NCBI GenBank assembly: GCA_963555815.3
Contig: CAUVWX020000001.1
Coordinates: 1,281,533 to 1,345,532, forward strand
From: a bacterium
Lineage (GTDB): Bacteria; UBA8248; JACPRG01; G963555815
Length of the DNA stretch: 64,000 nt
Reading direction: 5' to 3'
Each line of letters opens with the position of its first letter. Position 1 is the first letter of the stretch. The position numbers were made by a program, and so were the translations under genes. The notes under the pieces are model-generated. The model did no database searches. It was not told the origin of the DNA and saw nothing but the letters and a program-made list of their open reading frames with translations. This document shows positions 9,069 through 11,009 of the stretch, in pieces.

Positions 9069-11009
9069 TTAGCGGACGCGGCTCCAGGCCCGCTGATAGT
9101 CCTCAAAGGTATCCACATCCATCCAGCCGTGTAAGGCTTCAAAAGCCACCACCTTTTCTCCACGCTGGATGAGCTCTTGGATCATGTCCGTGAAGCCCGC
9201 CTGTTCCAGGGAAGGCGCCTCGTGGAGGGGGGCGCCGGTCTTGCGTTGCAGGAGATCCTGATAGACCTCTCGAAGGATTTTCGTCCCTCGCTCCGAGAAC
9301 ATGCATAGGCCAACGAACTCCCCCTGAGACTGCTCTGGGTCCAGGCGGCGGCCGATCCGAAGAACTCGGGCATAAGATCCATCTCCAGCAAGACTCAGGG
9401 AGGGGTCCGTCATCACCAGCTCGGGGGGAAACTGGGCATCTTTTTTCGTCTCAGAAAAGGAGCGGTCTACGAGAAGGCTCACATCGGCTGTGCTTCGAAG
9501 AAGCCCCTCTAAGAGCTGCCGCTCAAATAGGACGTCGCCGTACAGGAAGAGAAATGGTCCCTCCATCTCGGCTTCGGCGCAGAAAAGGGAGGAGAGGATG
9601 TGGGTCTCGCGAAAGCGCAGATTGTCATAGTAGCGAAGGTTGGGGAGATTGACCTTCTCTCTGAGGTATCCACGGACAACCGCGATCTCTCGGATGTTCA
9701 AGGTGTTGAGGGTTTCCACCTGGCGCTCCAGAATGGATTTCCCCTTAATGTCGAGCATGGCCTTGGGCCGATCTTCGGTCAGGGGGAGAAGCTCCTCATG
9801 AGGCCCAGCCGCTACGATGAGGGCACGAAGGCGGTGACCGCCGACCGGAAGAAAGGCCTGCTCTTGGCGTTTCATGGACGAGAGGTCGATGAGCTGGTAG
9901 ACGTCCTCTAGGGGGACGATCCGGTCATCCACGGCGCTCGCCTGACCCTCGGTGAGAAGGCGCTGAAAAACCTCTCGCATTCCAAAGACGCAAGCCCGGA
10001 GGGCCTGGTTGGCAAAGATAACCGCCTTGAAGCCCCAGGCGGAGAGCTCCTTTACAGATGTCGTCTTATACATGGTCGGGACTGACACGAGGGGACAGGG
10101 CCGGTCCCACTGCCGGGCGAACTCCCGGACCTCCTCGGGGGAGGGGGACCTCGAGTGGATCAAGATGGCGTCAGCCCCAGCGTCGGCATAAGCCCGGGCC
10201 CGTCGAAGGGCCTCCCCCATCCCCCACCCGGCAATGAGTGCCTCACATCGGGCCATGACGAAAAATTCCGGCGTCTGCTGGTTTGCCTTAGCGGCTTGTA
10301 GCTTTCCGACATGCTCCTCGACAGAGACAAGCTCCTGTCTCACTCCTGGGTAGAGGCTGCATCGTTTGGGAAAGGCATTATCCTCAATACAGATCCCCGC
10401 TAGGCCTGCGCGCTCATACTCCACCACAGTTCTGATCACATTGATGGCGTTTCCGTACCCGTTGTCGCAGTCAGCAATGATGGGCAGGGCGACGGCATCG
10501 TTCATCTGGCGAGCGGCCTCCAGGTTCTCACTCATCGTCAAAAGGTTGGCGTCGGGCATCCCACGAGCCGCTGAGACCGAGAAGCCGCTGGCCCAGATGG
10601 CGTCGAAGCCCGCCTCCTCTGCGATCTTGGCACTGATCCCATCATGTGCCCCCGCCAACAGAACCACAGAGGGCCCCTCAAGGAGGGCCCTGAACTGCCG
10701 AGCCCGCGAGACGCCATTGAGCGAAACTTGGCCTGACAGAAACCTTCCTGATGAAGAACCACTCAGGGCGATTTGCTCGCCTTCGTTGTCCTTGGGAGGG
10801 AGGTGGCCGCTCGCTTGCAATAGTGAACGAAGTTCCAAGCCGTAGGCCTGGGCGAGTTTTTTAAGGATGTTGAGGTGTGGGTCCTTGCGAATCCCCCGCT
10901 CGAGCTGGGAGATGTAAGGGCTTGAGACGCCTGAAGCCCCTGAAGCTTCACGGATAGAGAGTTTCGAGGCCTCTCTGGCCTTCTTTAGGACAGCTCCAAG
11001 CGGGTCCAT
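9069..11009 (-). CDS. Three-domain fusion: XRE HTH + PEP mutase-family domain + C-terminal nucleotidyltransferase-like domain
   Basis: 646 aa. Res 1-65 are HTH ([27 protein letters not shown]). Res ~100-365 are PepM-like ([50 protein letters not shown]). Res ~393-646 are LicC-like ([30 protein letters not shown]). Confidence 0.8.
   Translation of the reverse strand: [646 protein letters not shown]

Follow-up and report, generated by a model that had tools for sequence, protein, structure and literature searches.

We examined a bacterial DNA stretch of 64,000 nucleotides (contig CAUVWX020000001.1 of assembly GCA_963555815.3; hereafter the window), focusing on a minus-strand gene at 9069..11009 that encodes a 646-aa fusion protein. 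Pfam and phmmer searches divided this protein into an XRE-type helix-turn-helix (HTH), a phosphoenolpyruvate (PEP) mutase domain belonging to what we call the Cys-loop subfamily, and a LicC/PntC-type nucleotidyltransferase (NTase). The same 646-aa product was called by an independent gene caller in other assemblies. The N-terminal HTH_3 domain (aa 4-66) lies at 10812..11000, and the C-terminal NTP_transf_3 domain, which is MobA/LicC-like and similar to LicC 1jyk in the PDB search, at 9090..9827. Between them, the PEP mutase (PepM) domain (aa about 100-390) occupies 9840..10712; it matched PF13714 with E=1e-62 (aa 106-351), and its best structural matches were the PepMs 5unc and 1pym. Almost all phosphonates of biological origin begin with the PEP mutase reaction. 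The best explanation of our findings, which we consider probable, is that the window protein is a functional PEP mutase, predicted to convert PEP to phosphonopyruvate (PnPy), with an unusual gating loop.

This loop, E209-D-N211-A-F-P-K215-R216-C217-S218 (residues 209-218), is encoded by the minus-strand codons 10385-10356, and the Cys217 codon is TGC (10359-10361). In the numbering of the mussel enzyme, which we use below, N211 corresponds to K116, R216 to T121 and C217 to N122. In a phmmer search against the PDB the loop aligned gap-free to solved enzymes, with changes exactly at Lys116 (Asn) and Asn122 (Cys). The matches were PepM 5unc from Streptomyces platensis (E=2e-88; loop alignment IEDKRFPKVNSF), phosphonopyruvate hydrolase (PPH) 2dua (E=2e-69; MEDKTFPKDTSL) and mussel PepM 1m1b (E=5e-66; LEDKLFPKTNSL), while lyases in the PDB were matched at about 1e-30. 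An earlier reading of the window, made from the sequence only, had described these codons as a hybrid loop within a PepM-like domain, in which Lys becomes Asn, the loop Asn becomes Cys, and a lyase-type K-R-C is joined to a mutase-type S-L. The translation, its context and the PepM-like stretches quoted there are all present, and the gap-free alignment bears out both substitutions and the junction of K-R-C with S-L. The reference motifs that it had cited were also correct (EDKLFPKTNSL in the mussel enzyme; EDQxxxK[KR]CGH in the lyases E. coli PrpB, 3eoo, 4iqd and 1zlp). The loop departs from the PepM membership motif EDKX5NS (K116 is N and N122 is C), from the lyase motif K-[K/R]-C-G-H (K-R-C is aligned but is followed by S-L, not G-H), and from the loop of the hydrolase PalA, EDK..PKD[T/S]S, at positions 116, 121 and 122.

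Apart from positions 116, 121 and 122, the catalytic inventory of PepM was intact. All four acidic residues of the Mg2+ site (D58, D85, D87 and E114) are present in the window protein, and an alignment with mussel PepM indicated that the substrate- and phosphoryl-binding residues W44, S46, G47, K120, S123, R159 and H190 were all kept, as was L124. The protein shares with the canonical enzymes (EC 5.4.2.9; Mytilus edulis 1pym/1m1b and S. platensis 5unc) the fold, the length of the gating loop, P119, K120, S123, L/F124 and all but two of the Mg2+, oxyanion and phosphoryl residues. It differs from them in having Asn for Lys116, Arg for Thr121 and Cys for Asn122. The Cys-loop clade differs further in F48, Y125 and mostly R130, although the window protein keeps Gln130. 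The sequence-only reading had proposed an alignment against PepM, PPH and lyase references; in it the Cys217 column was that of the lyase catalytic Cys, and the domain was otherwise closest to PepM. Using four independent true lyases for comparison (E. coli PrpB, 3eoo, 4iqd and 1zlp), we found 15 positions that are common to the Cys-loop clade and canonical PepMs and different in the lyases, including W44, S123, H190 and S191. Position 190 is His in the window protein, in the clade and in canonical PepM, whereas true lyases have a Glu, which we take from PrpB studies to be the partner of the catalytic Cys.

Sequence models and the predicted fold gave the same ranking. The best NCBIfam model was PEP_mutase TIGR02320 (298.6 bits, below the cutoff of 319.55), followed by PPH TIGR02321 (252.3 bits; cutoff 374.4), prpB TIGR02317 (184.6 bits; cutoff 354.4) and ICL (37.7 bits; cutoff 275.9). 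Other members of the clade scored 262-294 bits on TIGR02320. Since this score is below the cutoff, NCBI names homologues 'isocitrate lyase/PEP mutase family protein'; JGI and KEGG-style annotation names the clade genes PEP phosphomutase. An AlphaFold2 model of the PepM domain had a pLDDT of 94.5 and a pTM of 0.91 (gating loop about 82-94). When this model was compared by Foldseek, the top matches were PepM 5unc and the Mg-oxalate mussel PepM 1pym (TM 0.93/0.96), with TM 0.89-0.95 to PPH and about 0.85 to lyases; identity to canonical PepMs was 39-50%. The catalytic residues, the best NCBIfam model and the fold ranking thus agree with the earlier claim that the rest of the domain is PepM-like.

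The window protein clusters with sequences from independent assemblies (NCBI, ENA, JGI and Logan; four sequences in all). The loop was identical in 4/4 of them, including a member 93.5% identical overall whose 42 substitutions all fall outside the loop. A search of the PepM domain against 5.8 billion proteins returned relatives only 50-63% identical. All 119 listed matches with a readable loop carried ED[N/S/T/A/Y]xx[F/H]PKx[C/S/H]S, with Cys in about 110. An alignment of the clade was also run against the GTDB species genomes, and the 80 best loci were kept. The Cys loop, with the pattern ED[N/S]x[F/Y]PK[R/K]CS, was found in 80/80 (Cys codons TGC in 72 and TGT in 8), and an NTase domain was fused to PepM in every one of these. 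The clade consensus was ED-N-x-F-P-K-R-C-S-[F/L]-Y, as against the canonical ED-K-x-x-P-K-x-N-S. Cultured hosts include Sorangium cellulosum So ce56, other Sorangium strains and Minicystis rosea. Metagenome-assembled genomes extend the hosts to Byssovorax, Binatia, Planctomycetota, Nitrospirales, Acidobacteriota, Methylomirabilota/Rokubacteria and Omnitrophota, and one archaeal host, a Nitrosocosmicus, was seen. We conclude that the Cys loop marks a large, conserved and widespread PepM subfamily that is so far uncharacterised. The loop as an oddity of one gene is refuted, and the database search for EDN..KRCS members that had been suggested from the sequence recovered many, mostly with phosphonate-type neighbourhoods.

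To place the loop among its relatives, we took the 150 best matches in a representative library at 50% identity, a sample biased toward the query. About 86 of these had canonical K/NS loops and about 20 had Cys loops; the others were EDN...NS, EDN...HS, EDx...SS, PPH-type EDK...D[T/S]S and prpB-like EDQ...KRCG. A fungal member of the clade was also observed in Aspergillus violaceofuscus (locus L087, gene 10001-10981, 57% identical, loop IEDNIFPKRCSFY). Its neighbours are an MFS transporter, a Zn-cluster regulator, an FAD oxidase and a Zn-ADH, with no recognisable phosphonopyruvate decarboxylase (Ppd) nearby.

The equilibrium of PEP mutase is unfavourable, and a downstream enzyme is needed to pull it. 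Downstream of the fusion, the same strand of the window encodes a split Ppd, an Fe-dependent alcohol dehydrogenase (Fe-ADH), a cupin resembling methylphosphonate synthase (MPnS), a second NTase, a phosphodiesterase-family protein and a sulfatase-flippase, and the fusion is co-transcribed with PnPy-consuming enzymes. The Ppd alpha (TPP_enzyme_N; 8573..9058) and beta (TPP_enzyme_C; 8010..8576) subunits both had TIGR03297 as their best NCBIfam model. The best model for the Fe-ADH (6892..8013) was TIGR03405, the phosphonate-cluster ADH, and the enzyme would reduce phosphonoacetaldehyde to 2-hydroxyethylphosphonate. The cupin (6152..6838) is a single-repeat HTH-cupin of 228 aa of the MPnS/HEPD/HppE family, and its best PDB match was methylphosphonate synthase 6b9s (5.6e-50). 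The second NTase (NTP_transf_3, from Pfam/NCBIfam) lies at 5343..6110. The next gene (4168..5046) encodes an alkaline-phosphatase-superfamily protein of the type-I phosphodiesterase family (Phosphodiest PF01663; weak PhnA-like match), which probably carries out a tailoring or transfer step. Canonical PepMs have the same kinds of operon partners, namely Ppd, the 2-aminoethylphosphonate (AEP) transaminase, Fe-ADH and a PntC-type NTase.

We further estimated how often this linkage recurs, using phmmer with the window's own Ppd as the query and a distance of at most 3 kb. A Ppd was found at 53 of the 72 Cys-loop genome loci and at 12 of the 18 Cys-loop metagenome loci, compared with 19/22 for canonical EDK...NS control loci from the same metagenome scan. 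In many Cys-loop loci the Ppd gene overlaps the stop codon of the fusion. At the So ce56 locus of Sorangium (L006; homologue at 10001-11665) the fusion is accompanied by Ppd a, Ppd b and an NTase, and a CDP-alcohol phosphatidyltransferase gene adjoins them. The stand-alone member P0095 lies in an operon of PepM, Ppd a, Ppd b, a class-V aminotransferase and an NTase, while another stand-alone member, P0023, adjoins a D-2-hydroxyacid dehydrogenase (2-Hacid_dh). The VlpB-type PnPy reductase is listed as a branch point (Li and Horsman), and the P0023 neighbour is a predicted dehydrogenase of this branch. We found no second PepM-like gene in the window or within 10 kb of any of the 80 loci, and the possibility that a nearby canonical PepM makes the window copy redundant was rejected on this basis. 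Because no other PepM is nearby, the downstream Ppd, Fe-ADH and MPnS-like enzyme would be left without a source of substrate if the fusion were not a mutase.

In the mechanism that we favour, catalysis would proceed as in canonical PepM, with Mg-bound PEP, closure of the loop and a dissociative migration of the phosphoryl group from O2 to C3. Asn122 holds the migrating phosphoryl, and the difference between PepM and PPH is usually ascribed to Asn122 versus Thr (PMC7916636). Cys217 would take the polar, phosphoryl-cradling place of Asn122, and probably substitutes for it in this role. In two close relatives position 122 is Ser (P0012, KRSS) or His (P0116, KRHS), and both have a Ppd directly downstream. 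As position 122 can be N, C, S or H in Ppd-linked members, a small polar cradle fits better than an indispensable thiol. Arg216, at position 121, would replace the positive charge lost with Lys116. Among 141 PepM-like representatives, a basic residue stood at 121 in 40/50 of those without Lys116 and in 18/91 of those with it, which suggests that the charge at the loop base has moved from 116 to 121. True lyases show the same charge arrangement in their K-[K/R]-C. The PnPy formed would pass through the split Ppd alpha/beta to the Fe-ADH (giving 2-hydroxyethylphosphonate) and the MPnS-like cupin, and the product would then be nucleotidyl-activated and transferred to a surface polymer; everything beyond Ppd is predicted from homology. 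The fusion is most likely the first enzyme of a pathway for surface decoration with hydroxyethyl- or methyl-phosphonate.

The K-R-C of the loop would be a retained ancestral feature, held in common with the C-C lyase branch, so that this lineage would keep an early stage of the passage from lyase to mutase. At four of the five positions that best separate the clade (48, 116, 122, 125 and 130), the clade agrees with the nearest lyase-like sequences. Its F48 and Y125 occur in the nearest prpB-like relatives, and its A29, A42 and Y276 in true lyases. With true lyases as the outgroup, the clade agreed with the lyases and not with canonical PepM at 4 sites, and canonical PepM agreed with the lyases and not with the clade at 1 site; with the nearer prpB-like outgroup these numbers were 6 and 0. 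Identity to true lyases was 29.9% for the clade and 27.7% for canonical PepMs, a small but consistent difference. These characters make retention of an ancestral state probable, with moderate confidence. The label 'hybrid' given by the sequence-only reading therefore needs qualification: the combination of K-R-C with S-L is real, but retention probably describes it better than a new combination does (support for the polarity being moderate). A codon path from Cys through Ser to Asn was also considered and found no support, the Ser variants being TCC/TCG, one step from TGC and off any path to AAY.

Several points weigh against this picture, in its functional as well as its evolutionary part. 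The window protein misses the curated TIGR02320 equivalog cutoff for PepM. Ppd linkage was less frequent at Cys-loop loci than at the canonical controls, and about 26-33% of the Cys-loop loci had no PnPy-consuming gene within 3 kb; these partnerless loci comprise all the Binatia loci and some of those from Nitrospirales and Polyangia. In the mussel enzyme Asn122 is reported to be important for catalysis (Liu et al. 2002/2004, as summarised in PMC7916636), and a thiol donates hydrogen bonds less well than an amide does. The association between positions 116 and 121 (K116/R121; Fisher p about 4e-12) ignores phylogeny, and the claim of ancestral retention rests on few characters. In a rooted neighbour-joining (NJ) tree of 145 representatives the EDN-type loops formed a basal grade, but with backbone bootstraps of 0-30. 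The only robust splits were those of the lyase-like outgroup (99) and of the PPH clade with EDK..PKD[TS]S (100), and ancestral polarity was judged by shared characters because the backbone was unsupported. Our literature search found no characterised member of the Cys-loop clade and no report of phosphonates from a host with only this type.

The main rival, a mutase whose mechanism or regulation depends on the Cys, is possible but unlikely. Two versions of this were considered, and our estimate applies to both taken jointly. In one, a transient S-phosphocysteine intermediate would be formed, with double displacement and net retention; in the other, the gating loop would be redox- or thiol-switchable and would control whether C-P bonds are formed. 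In canonical PepM, the residue at the place of this Cys contacts the migrating phosphoryl, and the Cys is flanked by K-R, like the reactive Cys of lyases. Its conservation is very strong (found in about 110 of the 120 best homologues and in 80/80 genome loci, as TGC or TGT), and the contextual evidence for PepM function applies equally here. Relatives in which Ser or His naturally replaces the Cys keep the Ppd-linked operon, which speaks against an indispensable thiol, and the rest of the active site is unchanged from that of the dissociative, non-covalent enzymes.

A related conjecture joins this mechanism to the ancestry of the loop. Here the Cys-loop enzymes would be a surviving early branch between C-C lyases and C-P mutases in which the lyase-derived Cys is catalytically active, as a thiophosphate or a redox gate. 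We regard this as rather unlikely. If it were true, biology would have two mechanistic solutions to C-P bond formation, and EDKX5NS would describe only the derived one.

Chemistry other than that of a mutase, all forms taken together, is quite unlikely. The more substantial form of it, which we judge improbable, is a lyase, decarboxylase or hydrolase acting on an oxo-acid with the Cys of K-R-C as general acid/base. The window protein shares with the C-C lyases (PrpB 1mum, 3eoo and the petal death protein 1zlp) the superfamily, the barrel fold (TM about 0.85) and K-[K/R]-C column for column, so that its K-R-C is identical to the lyase motif and aligned with the catalytic Cys. It also passes neither EDKX5NS nor the TIGR02320 cutoff, between about a quarter and a third of the loci have no phosphonate-pathway neighbour, and the Aspergillus homologue has no obvious Ppd nearby. 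However, Ser-Leu/Phe and not Gly-His follows the Cys, position 190 is His and not the lyase Glu, and the clade has EDN and not EDQ. Identity of the window protein and its clade to true lyases is only about 30%, the prpB score (185 against a 354-bit cutoff) is well under that of the PepM model, and structural similarity ranks PepM above PPH and PPH above lyases. The context is one of phosphonate biosynthesis, and this reading would leave the Ppd, the phosphonate Fe-ADH and the MPnS-like enzyme without a substrate source. The sequence-only reading had offered a mutase with an altered mechanism or an enzyme with different chemistry. Different chemistry is disfavoured by the missing lyase partner residues and the phosphonate operon, and an obligatory Cys mechanism is weakened by the Ser and His relatives.

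A PPH-like or other catabolic enzyme was also evaluated, since position 122 is the usual discriminator between hydrolase (Thr) and mutase (Asn). PalA (Variovorax, 2dua) is the closest non-mutase relative (E=2e-69), and PPH departs from PepM at this same loop position (EDKTFPKDTSL). The window protein scored 252 bits on the PPH model, but this is far under the cutoff of 374 and lower than its PepM score. PPH is a catabolic enzyme that keeps Lys116 and has Asp121-Thr122; the window protein, encoded in a biosynthetic operon, has Asn116, Arg121 and Cys122 at these positions. In the tree, the true PPH-like sequences grouped apart in a clade of their own (bootstrap 100), and the context of Ppd, ADH, NTases and flippase is biosynthetic and not of the catabolic PalA/PalB type. 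We consider this alternative very improbable. Finally, a sequencing or assembly artefact or a decaying pseudogene is excluded: the window does hold a frameshift-broken gene at 1303-3971, but the 646-aa reading frame is unbroken, four independent assemblies (the 93.5%-identical variant among them) have the same loop, and the motif is kept across hundreds of distant homologues.

Phosphonates include antibiotics and herbicides (fosfomycin, phosphinothricin), cell-surface phosphonoglycans, phosphonolipids and methylphosphonate, which is an oxic methane source. Estimates of their producers, and the mining of genomes for them, depend on EDKX5NS or on curated HMM cutoffs. A perfect EDKX5NS was required as the definition of PepM by Rice et al. 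2019 (PMC6697681), Acker et al. 2022, Li and Horsman 2022 and a 2025 actinomycete screen. The earlier claim that motif-based screens would miss the window protein holds for all four of these published pipelines, and the TIGR02320 cutoff misses it too. Rice et al. 2019 (PMC6697681) dropped 26,231 PF13714 proteins as 'presumed non-Ppm', only 22 of which were fused to other domains. We infer that the NTase-fused Cys-loop proteins, such as those of Sorangium, fall in this discarded class. In the same study the PF12804 LicC-like NTase was the commonest type of Ppm fusion (PMC6697681). The Ppm-PntC fusions described there (Fom1-type logic) likewise combine PepM with a LicC-like PF12804 NTase, but EDKXXXXXNS was required of them, and the window protein has an N-terminal XRE HTH in addition. 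We found no description of the Cys-loop variant in the literature, although a remark in the source papers of the motif (Yu et al. 2013; Chen et al. 2006) is possible.

The Cys-loop subfamily shows that the diagnostic motif used in the field, like a curated HMM cutoff, is too narrow. With a conserved subfamily of operon genes passing neither filter, producers would have been under-counted in soil, groundwater and freshwater lineages. The groups concerned are Polyangia (Sorangium), Binatia, Planctomycetota, Nitrospirales, Acidobacteriota, Methylomirabilota and soil Thaumarchaeota. The natural exchange of Asn122 for the lyase Cys, with Lys116 also gone, is in addition a natural experiment on the requirements of the gating loop, and the clade may reveal how C-P mutase chemistry arose from C-C lyase chemistry.

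When we compared the window with marine methylphosphonate clusters (TARA and other metagenome loci), which we take to be those assigned to Nitrosopumilus maritimus and Pelagibacter, the gene set was the same: PepM, Ppd, Fe-ADH, an MPnS homologue, NTases and sulfatase/phosphodiesterase-family proteins. The marine loci differ in having canonical EDK[T/I]FPKQNS PepMs, whereas the window combines a Cys-loop PepM with the single-repeat, 228-aa MPnS-like protein. Both halves of the two-repeat, 457-aa 6b9s align to this protein (88 and 83 bits), and it matched HEPD 6b9r at 1.9e-40 and HppE at 2e-21. It carries GHSLHQ, FYIRPFVPH and LRFYW, corresponding to H148/Q152, I184/H190 and F162 of MPnS, which we take to be the MPnS-type signature (Born et al. 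2017). JGI calls a 239-aa homologue 'methylphosphonate synthase'. A word-based search for relatives gave only 3 matches, and a half-size MPnS seems to be rare.

The N-terminal HTH of the fusion was absent from the other 80 genome loci and from the top 120 homologues, and the in-frame fusion was kept in 4/4 members of the window protein's own cluster. The HTH-PepM-NTase fusion might be a self-regulating biosynthetic enzyme. A search for a palindromic operator upstream of the fusion gave nothing convincing, and the idea that its HTH is a duplicate of that in the MPnS-like protein was ruled out (no similarity; E=6.7). Reading of the sequence gave a candidate sigma-70-like promoter on the minus strand at 11063..11090, near consensus, with -35 TTGACA (11085-11090), a 16-nt spacer and -10 TATGAT (11063-11068). 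It sits about 50 nt 5' of the fusion ATG and is followed by a Shine-Dalgarno-like run, GGGGGA.

At the far end of the operon, the gene for the sulfatase-family and Polysacc_synt (flippase) protein (1303..3971, minus strand) is broken by frameshifts in the window, and a sister assembly has a single product of 884 aa. A straight translation of 2826-3971 runs into six stops, and ORF 2826-3725 is read in another frame than ORF 1303-2907. An indel error in the assembly would account for this, as would a recent pseudogene. On the other side of the fusion, GC content falls to 0.50 at 12001-16000, against about 0.58-0.60 elsewhere. This dip spans a divergent block of a radical-SAM/SPASM gene (11483-12400), a formyltransferase-like gene (12681-13652) and a polysaccharide-deacetylase-like gene (13699-14613). 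The low-GC block may be a horizontally acquired tailoring island next to the phosphonate operon.

Some Cys-loop PepM-NTase fusions were orphans (L002, L013, L021, L023, L024, L027, L038 and L044 in Binatia; L045 and L051 in Nitrospirales): within 10 kb they had neither a Ppd nor a 2-Hacid_dh nor any other recognisable phosphonate gene. The neighbours of L002, for example, are an exonuclease/GIY-YIG protein, a terpene-cyclase-like repeat protein and a NUDIX protein.

Other non-canonical PepM-like groups were also seen. In the EDN[L/T/V/Q]FPK[R/V]NSL group (metagenome loci L094-L106, L119 and L152), Lys116 is lost and Asn122 is kept, so these sequences also fail EDKX5NS. A Ppd was found in 0/8 or 0/6 of the loci with enough flank (depending on the flank cut), with no NTase nearby, and a D-2-hydroxyacid dehydrogenase lies immediately upstream in 6/6 of the loci with enough flank. 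These loci are in polysaccharide-synthesis regions (Bac_transf, GT1, Wzy_C). The group was dropped as a set of simple evolutionary intermediates on account of the missing Ppd and the 6/6 pairing with the dehydrogenase, and it probably represents a phosphonolactate-type (PnPy-reductase) branch, judging from its gene neighbourhoods.

A prpB-like group (P0235, P0239, P0246 and P0253) has the loop EDQxxPKRC[G/A][L/Q][Y/F], which does not have the lyase His after Cys-Gly. In the PDB search with P0246, PepM and PPH were the best matches, ahead of lyases, and this small family may form a further bridge from lyases to mutases. Large PepM-like fusions were observed as well, namely P0137 (801 aa), P0193 (1057 aa), P0203 (1004 aa) and P0166 (785 aa). 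In P0137, whose loop is EDNQHPKRNS, the fusion partner is an acyl-CoA ligase / adenylation domain, and the other three have long N-terminal extensions of a type that was not recognised.

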